Source: an uncultured delta proteobacterium (GTDB lineage Bacteria; Desulfobacterota; RBG-13-43-22). From it: a DNA stretch of 18,422 bases. Numbering within the stretch: the stretch's first letter is position 1; every line of letters starts with the position of its first letter. The DNA is taken from positions 1 to 18,422 of the forward strand of contig CAWDKY010000057.1 of NCBI GenBank assembly GCA_963802945.1. Reading direction: 5' to 3'. This document shows positions 1,890 to 18,422 of this stretch, one piece after another. The notes below the pieces were generated by a model that saw only the letters and a list, made by a program, of their open reading frames with translations, was not told the origin of the DNA and did no database searches. Position numbers and translations under genes: made by a program.

Positions 1890-1949
1890 AAGGATTCAAT
1901 CCCGCCAGCGGCGGAATTGAATCCTCGAATCCTGGAATCCTTGAACCCT
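1890..1949. repeat. Octamer-repeat hairpin element (T[TCG]GAATCC family)
   Basis: AGGATTCAAT-CCCGCC-AGC-GGCGGA-A is followed by TTGAATCC TCGAATCC TGGAATCC TTGAACCC (1917-1948). The same octamer occurs at 16701-16724 and 17782-17887. Confidence 0.8.
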
Positions 1950-2260
1950 ATTTTTGTTCTAAATTTAATTCCTTCCTCAACAATACAAAAGGAACGGCAA
2001 GTTAGAGAAGGATTTTTTATTTTCGGCGAGATGCCCGCAAATAAATAAAAAAAAATTCCCCCCTGGGTAATTTCAGCAACTCTGTGGTCGATAGGATTTT
2101 TTGGCGAACAAGGGCGGACTGTTAGGAAACTTGATTTTATCAGGGAATGGTCAGGTGGTAACCGTTATAATCATGGCTCCTTTCCATGGATAAGCCGGAG
2201 AAAAGGCCTGCCCGACAGCCTCCACACAGAAGAAAAGGCATCCTTAACCCGTCCAGACTA

Positions 2261-5805: not shown

Positions 5806-7730
5806 ATGCCTGGTTGGTGTGGAAAGATCCTTCGGATCGATTTGAGTGATAACCGTATCACAACTGAAGAAACAGAAAGGGTTGCCCGGTTGTTTTTGGG
5901 AGGCCGGGGCATTGCCACCAAGATATACTGGGACGAAGTACGTCCGGAGGTCGGTGCCTTTGATGCCGGGAACAAGATCATCATCATGACAGGTCCTCTT
6001 GTAGCCACAGGTGTTCAAGGGGCAACTCGATGTACGGTGATCAGCAAGTCGCCGATGTTGATCCCTGAGGGGTTTTCCTACGGGAGCCTGGGCGGATTTT
6101 TCCCCTCCGAACTGAAAAAGGCAGGGTTTGATGGGATCGTCATTTCCGGAAAGGCCTCCGAACCGAGCCTGATCGTTATCAGGGATGAAACCGTGGAGAT
6201 CTGCGATGCCTCGGCCTTATGGGGCAAGGGAACCTATGAGGTCGGTACGATCCTCCGTGGCCGGTATGGTGAAGACATCAAATATATCTCAACCGGCCCG
6301 GCTGGAGAAAATCTCTGTCGAAGCGCCACCATCATAAGCGATCACGAGGGCAGTGTCACTTCAGGATTTGGGGCCGTTTTCGGATCGAAAAAGCTCAAGG
6401 CCATTGCGGTAAAAGGGTCCGGAAGTCCGTCGGTGGCCTGGAAGGAGAAGCTCCAAACCCTCAACCGCAGAACCGTCCTCTTGAGCAAACGGTTGGCCAT
6501 TAAACTCCCTTTGCCCAAGCAGCAAATCACTCTATCTGAAAAAATCCCCCTGCGCCGCCTGCGGCCTCGATTGCCAAAGAGGCCTGTTCCGAACCAATTC
6601 AGGCAAGGAAGCCATCCGAAAATGCCATTCCATGACTTTTTATATGCCTTGGGTTTACCGTCGTAAAGACGAACACATCGATACGAGCTTCACCGCTACG
6701 GCCTTGTGTAATGACTATGCCCTCTGCACGATGGAAATCCAAAATATCGTCGAGTGGTTGCTCGACTGTGAAAAAAGGGGCCTACTTACAGAAAAAGACA
6801 CTGGAATTAATCTTTCAGACTTTAGGATCTCTACCCTTCATTACTCAATTGACGTCAATGATCGCCAAAAGGGAAGGCTTCGGAAACATCCTGGCCGAAG
6901 GGGTGATGAGGGCCTCGGCACAAATGGGGGAAAAAGCTTCAAACCGTTTGACCATAAACATGAGCGGTGGCGGTATTGGACTGGCAGGGGGTTATGCCCC
7001 GCGGGAATATCCCATTACCGCATTATTGTATGCCTTCGAACCCAGGCAGCCGATTGCCATGTTGCATGAGGTGGTCTTTCATGTCATACGATGGCTGGCC
7101 AACCGAACCCGCCCCGACTTATCCCCGACTACGAACGAGGTATTTCGCAAGGCCGCCGGGCGGTTCTGGGGAGGTGAAGAAGCGGGAAATTTTGCAACTT
7201 ACGAGGGGAAGGCCCTGGGGGCCGCCAAAATTCAGGATCGTACCTATGTCAAAGATAGTCTGGGATTGTGCGATTTTGCCTGGCCCATAATGGACTCATT
7301 CAACACACCCGATCACGTGGGCGATCCGGAACTTCCGGCGCAGATTTTTTCAGCCGTAACCGGTATGGAGGTCAAGGAAGATGATCTGCATCTCTTTGGC
7401 GAGCGAATTTTTAATCTTCAAAGAAGCATCCTTTTGCGTGAGGGCCGTAAGCCGAAGGAATCGGACCTGCCGCCGGACTTTAATTTTACCAAACCAGTGA
7501 CCCATGTGGCCACCAATCCTCAGCTGATCGTTCCCGGATCGGACGAAAATCCGGTATCGATACAGGGCAACACCCTCGATCGGAACCGATACGAGTCCAT
7601 GCGGCGTGAATATTACACCATAAGAAAATGGGACCCCGATTCGGGACGCCAAAAGAAAAGCACCCTGGACAAGCTCGGTTTATCCGATGTTGCATCGGAA
7701 ATGAATAAGTTGGGGTTCCTGGAATTGTAA
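5806..7730 (+). CDS. aor: Aldehyde:ferredoxin oxidoreductase family protein (tungstopterin, 4Fe-4S), frameshifted at about 6530-6630 and 6810
   Basis: The N-terminus has GWCGKILRIDLS..FLGGRGIA, ELKKAGFDGIVISGKA, GPAGEN and GFGAVFGSKKLKAIAV. The shifted frame near 6550 has CAACGLDC (Cx2Cx3C). Later motifs are CNDYALC, IAKREGFGNILAEG, DSLGLC and YYTIRKWD..LDKLGL. Confidence 0.88.
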
Positions 7731-8416: not shown

Positions 8417-9439
8417 ATGCAACTTAATATAAACAGGGCTCAGAGAAAGATATTTTTTCAAATCCTGTTGGTTTTGATTTTCTTAACCTGTTTTCTCGTA
8501 AGCTGTAGACAAGTGTTAAAACTATAAGTTTATCCGAAGATGGGGTTCTATGGGCCTTGGGGGGAATGGGAAATTTTCAGATCCTGAAGGAATCACCATG
8601 GACAGATCAGGAAACGTTTATGTGAATGATAATCATGCTAACGATTGCATCCAGAAGTTCACTTCCTTAGGAAGTTTTATCACCCAATGGGGTTCCTGGG
8701 GCAGTGGAAATAAACAATTTTCAGATCCTGAAGGAATCGCCATTGACGGATCAGGAAATATTTATGTGGCAGATTATATGAACTGTCGTATCCAGAAATT
8801 AGACCACAATGGTAACTATTTAACCCAATGGGGTTCTATGGGCAGCGGGAATCTGCAATTTTTATATCCCATAGGAATCGCCGTTGACTCATCAAATTAT
8901 GTCTATGTGACGGACTTCGGTAATAATCGTGTAGTGAAATATGACTCCAATGGTAACTATCAAACCCAATGGGGCACTTCTGGCAGCGGGAATAAGCAAT
9001 TTATACAACCTATTGGAATCGGCGTTGACCATTCAGGATATGTTTATGTGGCTGATAGTTATAATAACCGTATACAGAAATTTGACTCCAATGGGAACTA
9101 TCAAACCCAATGGGGTTCCTCGGGCAGTGGAAATAAGCAATTTTCAGATCCTGAGTACCTTGCCGTTGGTACGCTTCCGGAAATGTTTATGTGGCTGATT
9201 GTGGAAACTATCGTATTCAGAAGTTTACTTCCGCCGGAACTTATGTCACCCAATTTGGCACTTATGGCAGCGGGAATGGACAATTTAAAGATATTGAGGG
9301 AATCGCCATTGACTCCTCATCAGGATATGTTTATGTGGGAGATGGTGCTGATAATGGCGGCAGCTACAGCATACAGAAGTTTGGCAAACATCCAGATCAA
9401 AAGGGTATGCCCTGGCTGCTTTTGCTGCTGGGAAAATAA
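8417..9439 (+). CDS. Exported NHL-repeat (6-bladed beta-propeller) protein, frameshifted at about 8510 and 9170
   Basis: AGGAGG precedes ATG 8417 and a hydrophobic signal peptide (..ILLVLIFLTCFLVSC, possible lipobox). Six repeats of WGSxGSGNxQFxxPxGIAxDxSGxVYVADxxNxRIQKF follow. The true C-terminus is in the 9191-9439 frame and ends KGMPWLLLLLGK. Confidence 0.85.
8540..9385 (+). repeat. 141-bp intragenic tandem repeats encoding the NHL blades
   Basis: ACCCAATGGGG recurs at 8682, 8823, 8964 and 9105, an exact 141-bp period. Confidence 0.85.
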
Positions 9440-13335: not shown

Positions 13336-14834
13336 CAGACGAACCTTTAATTTCCATTTTGATCTGAAAACGATCCATATTTTGTCTCTGGTCTCTAAAG
13401 GTTGGGGCGGAAAACTCCACCTTCTGAAAGAGCTTCGATCCCTCCAGCTTTGGAATCAGTATGGTGGCCGAAGGGGAATAGCCTTCTAAATTAATTTGGG
13501 ATTCCGAAATTCTAAGCCTGGTCAGCCATGAATTCTTGGGCAGCAGCAAGGTGAGTTCCTTCATTATATTCAAATCCAGAGGTTTTGATTGTTTAAAGTC
13601 TTGGATAAGGTTAATCTCAGCATAAACCGTTTCGATGTCTTTTTTAAGGCTGTCGATTTTTTTTATTTCCACTTTTTTTGAAGCAATCTGGTTTTCTATG
13701 TTTTGAAGTTTTTTCTTTTCTATTTCGATCGGAGTGAACCAATAAATCCCCACTAAAATACCCAAAGCCAAAATCAATAAAGCCGTGATCACCCAAAGAG
13801 GCTTGGACTTTCTGTGAATCCCCTTAAACAGTAAATTAAGTCCCAGCGACTTGTTCCATAAGGATTCCAGCATCCCACCGACAGCGGCATAAGGAATCGG
13901 CTTTCCCCGCCATTCCCTTGGTCCAAGGTGCATCTCCGATTCATCTAAAAATTGAAAAGGTCGTTCTATGTGGATAGGGATCAATTTTTTCAGAGATGGA
14001 TTTTTATCTTTCAGAAAGAAAATAATTTCTTCCCATAAATTTATTTCCTTTGAAGCCGATTTTAATAATTCAATTTCCTGACGGATCAGTCCTGCTTTTC
14101 TCTTCTCATCCGCCTCCGGAAAAGTTCCGGAAAAGACCTTCAGATCGACATCAGGCGAAAAAAATACCCCCTGGTATTGATTTTCATCTATTCCAACGAA
14201 AAGGACCTGATCTGATCTTTGAATATACCGGCACAGGGTGTTCAATCCCAACAGATTGATTGTAATTTGATCGACCTTGAATCCTTTTTCCTGAATGGCT
14301 TTCAGATAAGGGTCTAACAAGTCGGCCCTGACCGCAGCCACTATAAGAATAACCTTCCCCTCTTCTTCTTTGAGGTACCTAAAGTCATAGTAGGCACTTT
14401 CGGGAGTGAAGGGGGTTATCCGATCCAGTTCAAAGGCGACAACATTGGAAATGTTTTCCAATACACTGGCGGGATATTCTACTGTCTTAACGACCGCCCA
14501 GGCCTTGGGAAGGCTCAAAGTCAAACGGCAGCCTTTCCGCCCCCAGTTCGGCCCTGGCTAAATTGAGGCTGGAGGTCAAAAACTCCGGTGAAGGATAGTC
14601 TGCTTCGGGAAAAGGATATTCTTTCCATTCTTTCATTGTTATTCTGGAAAGAAAGCGGGAACCGAAGGCAACGGATACTCTCCCTTTTTCAATAGACAGG
14701 CAAAGGATTTTTTTAAAGGAAATCCTGTCGTCCGCCGGACTTAAAAACAATAGCCGGCCAAGACCTGCTCCCATTTTCTTCCCGACCGAACGGAGGGAAC
14801 TGACTGTCCCGTTTTTATTTTTTAGCAATCTCAT
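13322..14834 (-). CDS. gspL: T2SS GspL-like protein (actin-like PilM domain, TM, PilN-like domain), frameshifted at about 14525
   Basis: It has an ATGA overlap with the gspK stop. Motifs are LSLPKAWAVVKTVEYP..FELDRITPF..YYDF, LNLL followed by a TM helix, and ELTLLLPKNSWLTRL..LEGYS..LEGSKLFQKVEF. Confidence 0.8.
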
Positions 14835-15793
14835 CCCTGTTTCATAGTGACTGGCGTCTTATAATAAAGTATATTATATTGGCTCTTGTCGTCCAAGAGC
14901 TTAACTGTTGCCCGCACCGCACAGCCGGATTGGGGTTTATCTTTGAATCCCGATGATTCAATCGTATAGCTATTGTTCGATACCGTCTGAATTGGTATAA
15001 GTTGAATCAGATTTTGACCTATTATTCCCTGGATCTCCGAGATACTTTTAATCTCCTGATCCTGACGATAGCTGATGATCTGATCGGCTTTTCCCGAATC
15101 TATTGTAGGACTGACGGCCATTAGGACTTCCTTAGAGGCGGAATTAATATTGATGGACCCAGCGGTGTCACAGACGGTCAGAAAATCGATTAAACCCTTT
15201 TTCCCCCCGTTTCCATAAAGGAGTTCCCGGGTCACCCCTTTGACCAATAAGAGTTCCTCCAAAGTATCAAAATCGGCATTTTTGGCTTTATAGGGATTGG
15301 GCAGCGAAAGGTAGTAGTCGGATTTGGCCCCATTCAGACGCTGCAAATCACCCTTTTCCCTCCAATCCATTATGGAGTCCGCAACAGTATCTATGTCTAT
15401 TCCTTCAATACCCATGATTTCGATAAGCTTCCTGAGGACTATCTCCGGGGCCGAATTAATATTTATTTTACCTGATTCATCGGTTATCTTGAGGACATAG
15501 TTTCCATCCCCCAACTGACCGGAATAAGGGCGGCCATCCACTTTCCATATCTCCCCGCCTTCAACCAGGCCCTTAATCACGAGAGGCTGCATCTTTCGTC
15601 TGTAAAAAAGCTCATAAACCCCTCGTTCGATCCCCGCTTCGGCCAGGAATCTTTTTCCCATCTCCTCCTTGAAGGATAAGGTGGAAAGGGTCTCGGTCCG
15701 GGCCATATAGGAAAATGAAAAAACGATGACCATCAGGACCGTCAAAACCCATAAAACGGTCAGCAGGGCAATACCTTTTTGATTCTGACTCAT
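14831..15793 (-). CDS. gspK: T2SS minor pseudopilin GspK
   Basis: It has KG|IALLTVLWVL (no Glu+5, typical of GspK), ITDESGKININ, DSIMDWR, FDTLEELLLVKGV and ININSASKEVL. Confidence 0.92.
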   Translation of the reverse strand: MSQNQKGIALLTVLWVLTVLMVIVFSFSYMARTETLSTLSFKEEMGKRFLAEAGIERGVYELFYRRKMQPLVIKGLVEGGEIWKVDGRPYSGQLGDGNYVLKITDESGKININSAPEIVLRKLIEIMGIEGIDIDTVADSIMDWREKGDLQRLNGAKSDYYLSLPNPYKAKNADFDTLEELLLVKGVTRELLYGNGGKKGLIDFLTVCDTAGSININSASKEVLMAVSPTIDSGKADQIISYRQDQEIKSISEIQGIIGQNLIQLIPIQTVSNNSYTIESSGFKDKPQSGCAVRATVKLLDDKSQYNILYYKTPVTMKQG

Positions 15794-15814
15794 TTTTCCC
15801 CTGAAATAAATTTC

Positions 15815-15865
15815 CCGTTATCCGTTATTCGACCTTCAACCTTCGATATTCAATATTCGATATTC
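15815..15865. repeat. Heptamer tandem array (7 units) just upstream of gspK
   Basis: CCGTTAT CCGTTAT TCGACCT TCAACCT TCGATAT TCAATAT TCGATAT TC. Confidence 0.8.
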
Positions 15866-15874
15866 TTTCTCTAA

Positions 15875-16038
15875 CAGGTTGCTGAAAAAGGCCCATCAAT
15901 CCCGCCAACGGCGGGATTGCCCTCATCCCTCGTCATTGCGGCGTATTTCTATATACGACTCATTCCTCGGGATTTCGGGACGCCTTGTATCTGACCCTTT
16001 TTGAGCAACCTGTGAAAAATGAGTTTTTCCGCAAACTG
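15875..16038. mobile_element. 164-bp MITE with 15-bp terminal inverted repeats and a CTAA target duplication
   Basis: CTAA|CAGGTTGCTGAAAAA ... TTTTTCCGCAAACTG|CTAA, with TIRs matching at 13/15. No transposase is encoded. A YTAR-type 4-bp duplication is typical of IS5-group elements. Confidence 0.75.
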
Positions 16039-16053
16039 CTAATCGATTCGTAC

Positions 16054-16700
16054 TTATAACGGCTTCTGCACAGCCTGGCTTCCCGATAATCCACCGCCGG
16101 TTCTCATGGAAAGGATCATAGAAAGGTCCTTCATGTCTTTGATCAGGTGAAGCCGGATCTTATTCGGCAGAAAAGCGGTCTCGGTCCATTCATCAATCCA
16201 TTTCCCTTCTGCTCCAGTCGGATCCTATAAAAATATTCGAAATACATCTCGTCAAAAAATTCCAAGAGTTTTATCTCTTTTTTGTTTTCCTGTCCTACCC
16301 CATTTTCTGAGGCCCAAAGCGTGCGTTTCCCTTGCTCTTCTTCAACTACCCGGTAGGAGACAACCACATACCCCGTCTCCCCTCCCCAAATGGAATGATT
16401 GGTAGAAAACTCGAGAAGCTCAGGCTGTCCTTTAAAATAATATTTTTTCTCTCCGTTTTCTTCGTGTTTCAGAGGGAGTTCCGATTGTATTTGGGCGTCA
16501 ATCAAATTTACAGAGGTCCTTACCCGTTCCAGGGATTCTATCTTTTTTTCCCCGGCTTCGACGGAACGAAACCCCAGTCTCAAAACGGCCACCAGGATGG
16601 AAACCATAATCCCGACAATGGCGATGGAGATCATGAGTTCCAGCAGGGTGAAGCCAAGGTTATTCCTGTTACCTCTTTTTTCAGTTATGAATGAATTCAC
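16054..16700 (-). CDS. gspJ: T2SS minor pseudopilin GspJ, frameshifted at about 16227
   Basis: The prepilin motif is LG|FTLLELMISIAIVGI. The rejoined C-terminus is (K)DPTGAEGKWIDEW..LPNKIRLHL..QKPL with TAA at 16054. The start is GTG 16700 behind GAGGA; alternatives are TTG 16736 and ATG 16740. Confidence 0.85.
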
Positions 16701-16724
16701 TTGAATCCTCGACTCCTGGAACCC
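16698..16724. repeat. Octamer array (3 units) at the gspI/gspJ junction
   Basis: CAC TTGAATCC TCGACTCC TGGAACCC. Confidence 0.75.
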
Positions 16725-16736
16725 CCTGGTTTGCAA

Positions 16737-17128
16737 TCATACCGGCTTTTTAAGCATCTTCAAGGTCTTCAGAGTCAAAGACTTTTCCTTGTTCCCCTGA
16801 GTCCAATAAACCTTGACTTCTATTTCCATCAGTTTCACTGAGAGGTTTTCCGACCTCTCCGGCAAGGTATCCGAAACAGAAACCTGAAATCGATATCCGT
16901 TATCCGTAATCCCGTCCCAAGTCCTTTCGGAAACTTCTTGGTCTTCCAGAACCTCTCTCATCTTGGTTTGGGCCTCCAAAGAACCGGCCACTAATCTTCC
17001 GAAGCTGAAATGGACCTCAGGTTGGCTGAAAAAAGCTGTAAAACCACGACGACGCCCACTCCCAGCAGGGCCAGGGCAACCAAAACCTCCAGCAGGGTAA
17101 AACCGGCCGTTTTATTCAGGGGCTTCAA
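16737..17128 (-). CDS. gspI: T2SS minor pseudopilin GspI, with a 1-bp frameshift at about 16992
   Basis: TTG 17128 behind AGAAGG gives MKPLNKTAG|FTLLEVLVALALLGVGVVVVLQLFSANLRSISASED. This joins the 16737-16991 ORF (VAGSLEAQTKM..IEVKVYW..LTLKTLK). Confidence 0.85.
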
Positions 17129-17140
17129 TTCAGCCTTCTT

Positions 17141-17180
17141 TCGATATTCCTTGTTCGCAATCCGATGTTCCCTGTTCGAT
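17141..17180. repeat. Degenerate heptamer array just upstream of gspI
   Basis: TCGATAT TCCTTGT TCGCAAT CCGATGT TCCCTGT TCGAT, with the same period and TCGATAT unit as 15815-15865. Confidence 0.65.
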
Positions 17181-17309
17181 GACTTCGTAAAAAGACGTCA
17201 TTCCCGCGCATGCGGGAATCCAGGCCCTGCTTAACCAAGTAAAAACACTGGATTCCCGTTTTCACGGGAATGACGAAAATGGGTTTCGTCGACTTTTTGC
17301 GGGTTCATC
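17178..17309. mobile_element. 132-bp MITE-like element carrying an inverted pair of ATTCCC-N8-GGGAAT palindromes
   Basis: The ends GATGACTTCGTAAAAAGAC and GACTTTTTGCGGGTTCATC (reverse complement GATGAACCCGCAAAAAGTC) match at 14/19. Inside are GTCATTCCCGCGCATGCGGGAATCCAG (17197-17223) and CTGGATTCCCGTTTTCACGGGAATGAC (17248-17274). Confidence 0.7.
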
Positions 17310-17336
17310 CTTTGCTTCTGTTTGTCTGAATAGGCT

Positions 17337-17855
17337 TCACTGGGTAACTACTGCCCCAAGTAAAGGATCCAGCCCGATCCCTATAGCCTTTTTTTTATCG
17401 GACAATTGAAATTGGACGCTTTCCATACTCCAATTTGGTTCAAAAACCAGTCGATATTGCCCACTCCGAATCTCTTCCCCTGTTGAATCTACTATTTTGA
17501 GTTCCAAATGGGAAGGGATTTTCTTGACCGGCTGCCCTTCTATTCCATACTCTTTGGAGTCCAGATCAACAGACCATCCCTGTGGTTCTCCATGAATTTT
17601 GGCCAAATTACGGGCCTGTCTTAATGTGGCTGAAAATTCCCTGGCCGTTGCCTGGAGCTTGGCCGAAGACAAAAGGTTGGCAAAAGAGACCGTCACCAAT
17701 CCCAGGATCAGCAGGCTTAACATCAAGACAATGATCAATTCCAGCAGGGTAAATCCCGACTCGTTTTTAAAATATGGGGAAGGGTTCGAGGATTCGAGGA
17801 TTCGAGGATTCGAGTTTTTAAAAATTAAACTCCAGATCGAATTTAACCTTTTCAC
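17337..17855 (-). CDS. gspH: T2SS minor pseudopilin GspH (FimT-like)
   Basis: It has SG|FTLLELIIVLMLSLLILGL and LQATAREFSATLRQARNLA, and sits between gspF and gspI. Confidence 0.85.
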   Translation of the reverse strand: MKRLNSIWSLIFKNSNPRILESSNPSPYFKNESGFTLLELIIVLMLSLLILGLVTVSFANLLSSAKLQATAREFSATLRQARNLAKIHGEPQGWSVDLDSKEYGIEGQPVKKIPSHLELKIVDSTGEEIRSGQYRLVFEPNWSMESVQFQLSDKKKAIGIGLDPLLGAVVTQ

Positions 17856-17888
17856 TTGAATCCTTGACCCCTTGAATCCTTGAATCCT
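17781..17888. repeat. Two inverted 4-unit octamer arrays around a 38-bp spacer
   Basis: GGGTTCGA GGATTCGA GGATTCGA GGATTCGA GT (17782-17815) faces AC TTGAATCC TTGACCCC TTGAATCC TTGAATCC (17854-17887). Confidence 0.85.
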
Positions 17889-17894
17889 TTTTTT

Positions 17895-18422
17895 CTAAAA
17901 AGGAAGATCCGTGATACTGAAGATAGCCATCAGCATGGACAAAACAATAAAACCGATGATCAGCCCCATCATTAAGATCATCGCCGGTTCCAGAAAGCTG
18001 ATAAATCTTTTTATGGAGACCCGCAAACTTTTTTCATAAGTGGTCGCTACCCTCACAACATATCATCCAACTGACCGGTCTCCTCCCCCACCTTGATCAT
18101 GGATAAGGCCAGGGGGGAAACACGTTGGAAGCAGAAAGCGGCAGGGCCATGCCCTTGCCTTCTTTCACCCCGGTTGACACATCCTCCAGGGCGGAAGCAA
18201 TCACCTGATTACTGACTACGTCCCTTGAATTTCTTATGGCCTGCAGCAATGGGACCTCGCTCTTAATCAGGGTGCCCAGGGTCCGGCAAAAACGGGCGGT
18301 CTCCAATTTGCGGATTATATCTCCCACCAATTTAAGCTTTATACCATCCCAGCGAAATCGGCCCTGTTCCGATTTGGTGTAAGTCCTGAACAAAAACCAG
18401 CCGGAAACAATCAGAATCAGGG
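17895..18422 (-). CDS. gspF: T2SS inner-membrane platform protein GspF, 3' part, frameshifted
   Basis: It has ARFCRTLGTLIKSEVPLLQA, VKEGKGMALPL..FPP, SMIKVGEETGQLDDM and FLEPAMILMMGLIIGFIVLSMLMAIF, with TAG at 17895. The 5' end lies outside the window. Confidence 0.92.

Follow-up and report, generated by a model that had tools for sequence, protein, structure and literature searches.

In cyanobacteria, STRR sequences are intergenic heptamer direct repeats, and in the opa genes of Neisseria, CTCTT repeats in the region encoding the signal peptide give rise to slipped-strand phase variation. The 23S rRNA of Leptospira contains intervening sequences (IVSs) that bear an open reading frame (ORF). 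Here we consider tandem arrays of 7- and 8-base units at the gene junctions of a type II secretion (gsp) minor pseudopilin operon, gspF-H-I-J-K, in an 18,422-nt stretch of DNA from an uncultured delta proteobacterium (contig CAWDKY010000057.1 of assembly GCA_963802945.1, analysed at its full length and called the window below). With a probability of roughly 80%, these arrays are the arms of small palindromic elements that occupy intergenic positions throughout the genome and represent emptied or degraded versions of a cassette that encodes a four-helix-bundle protein (PF05635/TIGR02436).

The closest known counterparts of such a cassette are the ORF-bearing IVSs of 23S rRNA. In Coxiella burnetii, an IVS in helix 45 carries an S23p (PF05635) gene between terminal inverted repeats that form a stem of 28 bp, and RNase III cuts it in vitro (PMC4990558, accessible text). 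Repeats resembling the arrays themselves have been described in the Beggiatoaceae, where TAACTGA units form tandem heptamers that are almost all intergenic, often near start codons, patchy across phyla and of unexplained origin; one inverted set was noted among 170 (PMC4679880, accessible text). In that text, the terms 'four helix', 'S23' and 'intervening sequence' have no occurrences and 'hairpin' has two. A literature search restricted to the papers themselves found none linking PF05635, TIGR02436 or S23p genes with tandem-repeat arms.

The elements described here share features with each of these systems. Like the 23S rRNA IVSs, they place a gene of the S23p family between terminal inverted repeats, lie inside a host transcript and are sporadically distributed; unlike them, they sit in the spacers of protein operons rather than in 23S helix 25 or 45, their stems, which are predicted only, consist of tandem 7- or 8-base units, and they have hundreds of empty derivatives. 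With the STRR and TAACTGA repeats they have in common that they are tandem heptamers, intergenic and numerous (335 period-7 arrays of at least 3 copies in this genome). However, there are many unit families here, inverted pairing is frequent, there is a cargo gene, the host is not a cyanobacterium, and the array units differ from the STRR units and from TAACTGA. Miniature inverted-repeat transposable elements (MITEs), repetitive extragenic palindromes and bacterial interspersed mosaic elements are likewise small, non-coding, multi-copy intergenic palindromes that can be internal deletions of a longer coding element and vary in presence between relatives, but the parent cassette here encodes no recognisable transposase, its arms are tandem arrays, and a target duplication is not seen. 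As in the Neisseria opa genes, repeats fall within a part of a protein that is cleaved off and have a unit length that is not a multiple of 3; in contrast to opa, the units are imperfect and a frame-shifting change in copy number was not observed. Intergenic heptamer repeats are already known. What is added is a series of alleles at a single junction, along with the probable co-option of relic sequence for a start site and a leader. For decades, heptamer and octamer tandem arrays have been recorded between bacterial genes with no origin assigned to them, and here they can be tied, junction by junction, to a cassette whose gene belongs to the protein family of the 23S rRNA IVSs, the function of which is likewise unexplained.

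The window is the entire 18.4-kb contig C57 of a metagenome-assembled genome (MAG; G000) of 4.37 Mb, 72 contigs and 47% G+C, whose closest public relatives are MAGs titled Thermodesulfobacteriota or 'delta proteobacterium'. Two more, diverged gspF-K clusters are present in the same MAG (C8:9400-13464 and C30:204300-209500), with gspK pieces of 61-99% protein identity. When the junction between gspF and gspH (F/H) is compared among these copies and the relatives, a series of unusual clarity emerges at this one site, from full through deleted and empty to absent. Heptamer arms enclose a full four-helix-bundle gene in the C8 copy and in the relative G003; in G008 the enclosed gene is internally deleted, and in G009 it is decayed. 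The window and the C30 copy carry an octamer hairpin, as does G005, where the left arm is reduced to one unit; contigs of three public sequencing runs are likewise 25-26 nt shorter at this point. Neither G001 nor any of four genomes of a neighbouring genus has an array at F/H. Because a four-helix-bundle gene occupies this very junction in C8 and G003, the junctions of the window hold empty derivatives of the cassette. The initial annotation had proposed that the arrays are empty landing sites or footprints of a repeat-guided insertion system and had suggested looking among relatives for gspF-K alleles without an array and alleles with cargo. Both kinds of allele exist, and the arrays are supported as empty or decayed cassettes, for which repeat-guided insertion is one possible mechanism.

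Arrays of this type are abundant far beyond the window. Counting arrays with three or more copies, the genome contains 335 of period 7 and 110 of period 8, compared to 8 and 5 in a third-order Markov shuffle, and the density in the window itself is four such arrays in 18.4 kb versus 13 in the shuffle of the whole 4.37-Mb genome. After merging, 433 arrays remain, of which 365 are located between genes, 12 at contig ends and 56 within called ORFs, mostly at the first or last bases of these. All 13 genomes of the same genus contain the octamer triple-unit pattern (7-159 matches each, with 0 control matches), which is patchy outside the genus, where one genome of another family has 59 matches; for the heptamer pattern, the number of matches ranges from 0 to 201 across the genomes scanned.

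The arrays are frequently paired and oriented. A reverse-complement dimer of the unit lies within 100 nt of 131 of the 432 arrays, compared to 1 with a reversed control and 2 with a complement-only control; this unit-dimer test with controls replaced a stricter one (24-mer, at most 4 mismatches), by which 88 of 432 arrays had a partner. Among neighbouring arrays within 1.5 kb of each other, 49 are inverted and 8 direct. The usual layout runs from a stop codon to an array within about 10 nt of it, a loop of 15-45 nt, an inverted array, and the ribosome-binding site of the next gene. This layout has a polarity with respect to the host genes: in the families with a known cassette, 72 left-arm-like arrays lie closer to the upstream stop and 10 closer to the next start, and the corresponding numbers for right-arm-like arrays are 23 and 35.

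Long loops between inverted arms, listed without any protein search, contain four-helix-bundle-like ORFs in five cases and the stump of one in a sixth. A profile search of the whole genome gave 6 matches to PF05635; five are these loop ORFs, and the sixth is a longer, unflanked ORF. All five cassette genes score above the TIGR02436 cut-off, have an array on the upstream flank and are co-oriented with the upstream gene. Arrays are detected on both flanks by Tandem Repeats Finder (TRF) in four of the five, the right arm of the C29 cassette being visible in the sequence only. PF05635 genes are also present in 33 of 41 relative genomes, and when the best match of each of 30 genomes is taken, inverted 7-9-mer arrays lie on both flanks at 19 of the 30 loci under strict TRF settings, with units that vary by genome. 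The full-length form is a promoter-less cassette comprising a left array, the PF05635/TIGR02436 gene and a right array, which follows immediately on the stop codon of a host gene and shares that gene's orientation. The short forms, including the F/H hairpin of the window, appear to be internal-deletion derivatives in which both arms are left, together with a few bases from either end of the cassette. Short loops of the CAGAATC family retain CCAGAATGAAAAG, the region of the cassette start codon, together with the C-terminal coding end, and octamer short loops retain CAAGTGAAATGCT fused to the final codons of the gene.

The initial annotation had also mentioned that arrays of 7-9 bp flank small four-helix-bundle or GxxExxY genes in surface-structure operons. 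The first half of this holds for 5 of the 6 PF05635 genes in the genome, for the 19 of 30 loci in relatives and for F/H of C8 and G003. The second does not: the single PDDEXK_3 (GxxExxY-type) gene, C59:9413-9763, has no period-7 or period-8 arrays on its flanks, and a link between this family and the arrays was dropped, as the lone gene is flanked by other repeats. Within C59:9100-10100, each flank of this gene has a similar TTTCACCGC...GCAG motif and then a GC-rich hairpin, a different design of small cassette.

The arms of the resident cassettes resemble many of the arrays that have no gene. Of 421 such orphan arrays, 203 have a unit with no more than 1 mismatch to an arm unit of the five resident cassettes, where chance would give 7.6% for 7-mers and 0.6% for 8-mers, and the five matching unit families are among the most abundant. 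These matches, and the finding that arm units vary between cassettes while the design is constant, are also what would be seen if the arrays were operator-like sites, with each four-helix-bundle protein recognising its own arm unit, as DNA or RNA, and acting in trans on the orphan arrays of its family, the gsp arrays being part of the regulon. This explanation is compatible with an origin of the arrays from the cassette and differs from it in the present-day role it would give them. Nonetheless, arms and gene move together, such that a family match is expected from common descent alone, and there is no resident gene for AACTCCG, the most frequent of the unmatched families; we regard operators as a possibility, though not a probable one. 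A more ambitious form would have the proteins bind their own units sequence-specifically and, with hundreds of orphan arrays, make up a genome-wide post-transcriptional network, in which the matching protein would open or cut the start-burying gsp hairpins and so set the ratio of minor to major pseudopilins. Such a network strikes us as rather unlikely. If it did exist, it would explain STRR-type heptamer arrays as both the relics and the operators of one cassette family.

Within the window, the arrays are as follows, those at the gsp junctions being given first.

17855..17889, minus strand: left arm of the F/H hairpin, (AAGGATTC) x4.4, from TRF and folding; starts 8 nt past the gspF stop.
17815..17854, minus strand: loop of the F/H hairpin, 40 nt, with an inner stem of its own, from sequence and folding.
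17781..17814, minus strand: right arm of the F/H hairpin, (CTCGAATC) x4.2, in the sole open in-frame gspH leader, from TRF, folding and frame analysis.
17140..17180, minus strand: degenerate run of GAATATC-type heptamers, a solo arm, identified by eye; upstream of the gspI TTG start (17128-17126).
16700..16726, minus strand: about 3 degenerate octamer units ending AGGATTCAAGTG, a solo left-arm relic, identified by eye and missed by TRF; gives the gspJ ribosome-binding site and GTG start.
15827..15865, minus strand: GAATATC heptamer array, a solo arm, TRF x3.4 (or period 14 x2.8); 34-72 nt upstream of the gspK ATG, with homologues in C8 and C30.
1890..1950, plus strand: a further octamer hairpin away from the gsp operon, with one AAGGATTC unit, a 19-nt loop and (GAATCCTN) x3.9.

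The two F/H arms are reverse complements of each other and form a single hairpin with a folding energy of -46 kcal/mol (z -5.9), a stability reached by 0 of 200 shuffles. Its loop keeps the left-end motif of the cassette, CAAGTGAA, and opens with GTGAA, which in a full octamer cassette (G033) is found just 5' of the four-helix-bundle start codon. The loop sequence is unique to the F/H site (C57 and C30) within the genome and is near-identical at the same junction in G005. Among the resident cassettes, the unit AAGGATTC has its match in the arms of C33 and GAATATC in those of C8.

Inverted 7-9-base arms that pair as a stem are present at F/H; at the H/I, I/J and J/K junctions there are only solo or degenerate arms. 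Both arms of an element would thus survive at F/H and a solo relic at each of the other three. The report of arrays at all four F-to-K junctions is upheld by TRF for F/H and J/K and holds for H/I and I/J by eye only, where the runs are degenerate. The H/I run is too degenerate for TRF in the window, and counterparts are detected in C8 and C30, with clearer homologues in G005 as well; counterparts of the I/J octamer run are detected in other gsp copies. An alternation of 8-, 7-, 8- and 7-base units along the operon, which had also been noted, is not conserved: the periods from F/H to J/K are 7-7-8-7 in the C8 copy, and heptamers are found at F/H in G003, G009 and G013 and at I/J in G003 and G013. 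The K/L, L/M and next junctions overlap, without an insert, as described initially. Two other inserts were seen at these junctions in relatives. The H/I junction of G009 contains a 9-base array, CAATGAACC x6.8, that is upstream of gspI and in frame with it; its translation would be a PMN-type repeat leader. At I/J of G005, an insert of about 190 nt with internal direct repeats (units starting ACGGTCGGCTTTGCCGACC...) interrupts the octamer relic that is intact in the window.

The F/H relic of the window seems to have been put to use by the host. The last AAGGATTC unit of the left arm yields AGGA-N5-GTG, likely the ribosome-binding site and start codon of gspH. This GTG (17855-17853) is the sole in-frame canonical start of the gene, and from it 33 residues run through the loop and the right arm to the G-F cleavage site. 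G005 retains the same open leader frame despite substitutions. In G003 and G009, the sole in-frame start of gspH is an ATG at the right end of the cassette, 20-21 residues before the G; the corresponding ATG is likewise in frame in C8 and G008, and for gspJ of G003, G009 and G013, starts are found only upstream of the right arm. The leader in a neighbouring genus without arrays has 9 residues. The open frames support the idea that the array is read as a cleavable leader, and the placement of the gspH start, before the right arm in the window (GTG) and at the right end of the cassette in G003 and G009 (ATG), agrees with the initial suggestion that a leader which is removed tolerates an insert. 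The accompanying statement placed each array at the 5' end of a gene whose leader is removed; only at gspH is an array inside the open leader frame, and those of gspI, gspJ and gspK in the window are upstream of the likely start codons.

We infer from the fold and the reading frames how the relics may act. In the operon transcript, base pairing between the arms would give a long, imperfect duplex, similar in build to the stems of the ORF-bearing 23S rRNA IVSs excised by RNase III. At F/H, the predicted fold buries the start codon and ribosome-binding site of gspH in the stem, and the right arm is coding; therefore, full cleavage would destroy the gspH message. The more likely role of this hairpin is that of a translational brake on the minor pseudopilins, with processing possible elsewhere: because the hairpin hides the start site, translation of the minor pseudopilins would probably be kept low. 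The left arm would have been co-opted as ribosome-binding site and start codon, and translation of the loop and right arm would yield an extra-long leader for prepilin peptidase to remove. In such a case, the host would draw a ribosome-binding site, a start codon and a cleavable leader from the sequence of an element, and annotators of this lineage should be prepared for prepilin leaders of unusual length and for start codons concealed within repeat arrays.

Several observations weigh against this interpretation of the arrays or limit how far it reaches. For 301 of the 432 arrays, there is no inverted partner within 100 nt, and 218 of the 421 orphan arrays, including the commonest unmatched heptamer, AACTCCG, match no resident cassette. 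No transposase, target duplication or excision product was identified for the element, and within the window, no PF05635/TIGR02436 gene lies between arms, although C8 and G003 have one at the F/H junction. Distances to start codons are approximate, as genes were called with a simple ORF-plus-hexamer model of our own on an assembly with frame errors. As to the leader, non-canonical starts nearer the cleavage site are possible, and the in-frame leaders recur among kin lineages and are not independent events. Finally, RNase III acting on the F/H stem would cut the gspH message within the part that encodes its leader, so that cleavage and read-through cannot both be complete there. The genome also contains 10 matches to Y1_Tnp (IS200/RAYT-type).

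An array inside the sole open leader frame of gspH, made of units whose length is not a multiple of 3, could in principle be a slipped-strand phase-variation switch, in which the gain or loss of a 7- or 8-base unit would shift the frame and toggle the minor pseudopilin. The number of units does differ, the left arm having 4 in the window and 1 in G005, with the contigs of three runs 25-26 nt shorter across F/H, and the C30 copy has 4.9 units and a stop 3 codons before the G. However, the variation in unit number was seen only in the left arm, upstream of the start codon, where it leaves the frame unaffected, whereas the right arm has 4.2 units in both the window and G005. The units are imperfect, most arrays in the genome are non-coding, and the C30 copy also carries single-base indels typical of this assembly. 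Phase variation is therefore improbable here.

Returning to elements derived from the cassette, their concentration in one operon calls for comment. The initial annotation had taken it to mean that a repeat-guided insertion system aims at the 5' ends of prepilin genes, with the arrays as landing sites. All four F-to-K junctions do have array material while the three downstream junctions have none, arrays are present at these junctions in all three copies of the cluster and in most relatives of the same genus, and a cleavable leader would render insertions harmless. Nevertheless, array material is found at 528 of the 3973 gene junctions of the genome. Consecutive array-bearing junctions occur in 58 runs of 2, 11 of 3, two of 4 and one of 6, so that runs of 3, 4 and 6 exist elsewhere. 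A motif scan gave 23 prepilin-like N-termini, 7 of which have array material at most 150 nt upstream, and 6 of these 7 belong to the three copies of the gsp cluster (C57, C8 and C30). The scan for enrichment at pilin 5' ends that had been suggested thus puts the other pilin genes at baseline: 1 of 14 has an upstream array versus 324 of 4045 genes, and a six-pilin cluster on contig C17 has none. Arrays are present in rRNA spacers and at 1890-1950 of the window as well. Targeting of pilins is very improbable on these counts, and the claim should be dropped. The relics would probably have gathered in the operon through tolerance by the cleavable leader and through local copying between similar pseudopilin 5' ends; these ends are near-identical, and local copying could account for several arms of one family in the operon.

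The rRNA spacers just mentioned are those of contig C65, where heptamer array hairpins lie upstream of the 23S gene (20262-20334) and between the 23S and 5S genes (16759-16790). The 23S gene of the MAG (C65; L089 3236-3525) itself spans 3290 nt versus a 2925-position model and has an IVS-like insert. The insert has an inverted repeat of 27 nt with 236 nt between its arms and is about 1265 nt from the 5' end of the gene, a position for which helix 45 is possible. When the gene was checked for an IVS of the array type, neither arrays nor an ORF were found in the insert. It includes a palindrome that resembles the MITE of the H/I spacer.

Two spacers of the operon contain MITEs in addition to array material, as had been noted from the outset.

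17190..17295, no strand assigned: palindromic MITE between gspH and gspI, from blastn (26 matches, 6 of them with 70% or more of the length) and a fold.
15885..16040, no strand assigned: MITE in the J/K spacer, with 39 near-full copies among 102 genome matches by blastn.

Both inserts are multi-copy and non-coding, have terminal inverted repeats and are polymorphic in presence. The H/I MITE is missing from related contigs of three runs (X2, X3 and X4; joint 17180->17316). The J/K MITE is not at this junction in the C8 or C30 copies, and the J/K spacer, 281 nt long in the window, measures 19-23 nt without an insert in G004, G003, G009 and G013. The summed contig depth over the two MITEs (17158-17319 and 15862-16023) reaches hundreds to thousands in metagenome runs from peat and soil; both families are therefore abundant in those communities.

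The assignment of the operon rests on Pfam domains and gene order. The minus-strand block consists, in order, of the C-terminus of gspF (T2SSF), the N_methyl pseudopilins H, I and J, gspK (T2SSK) and overlapping L- and M-like genes. T2SSF and T2SSK domains and three N_methyl prepilin genes, in an order kept in relatives, identify it as a type II secretion minor pseudopilin operon.

17337..17855, minus strand: gspH-like minor pseudopilin with an N_methyl motif; predicted leader of 33 residues from the GTG.
16737..17128, minus strand: gspI-like pseudopilin, frame broken near 16991; related contigs have one extra base at 16991 or 16995.
16056..16700, minus strand: gspJ-like pseudopilin with a frame break near 16226; an extra G follows 16226 in related contigs of all four runs.
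14831..15793, minus strand: gspK, intact, with T2SSK domains, from Pfam and the ORF.

The reading frames of gspF (twice, at 18054 and about 18100), gspI and gspJ are broken in the window, 3 of the 4 breaks being at short single-base runs (C6, TT and GG). All of these points are intact in the relatives and in the second gsp copy of the same genome, and related contigs from four public runs, which were used solely for indels, joints and length differences, have one base more at 16226, 16991/16995 and 18054; the breaks are therefore probably assembly errors. Such errors could be taken to mean that the arrays are themselves artefacts of assembly or sequencing, but this can be dismissed, given that the same arrays lie at the same junctions in independently assembled genomes, that the octamer pattern recurs throughout the genus with no control matches, and that the public-run contigs span the arrays. 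The C8 and C30 copies each have frame breaks of their own and, because MAG contamination is 6.7%, may be strain variants rather than paralogues. Public DNA runs containing the stretch number 19, each at no more than 0.10 of the sampled words, and none of those listed is RNA.

Two further features of the window lie outside the operon. The aldehyde-ferredoxin-oxidoreductase gene at 5806-7730 is divided into two ORFs. A 141-bp tandem repeat of 3.7 copies (8682-9200), which falls in a gene for an NHL-repeat beta-propeller, is an ordinary coding repeat.

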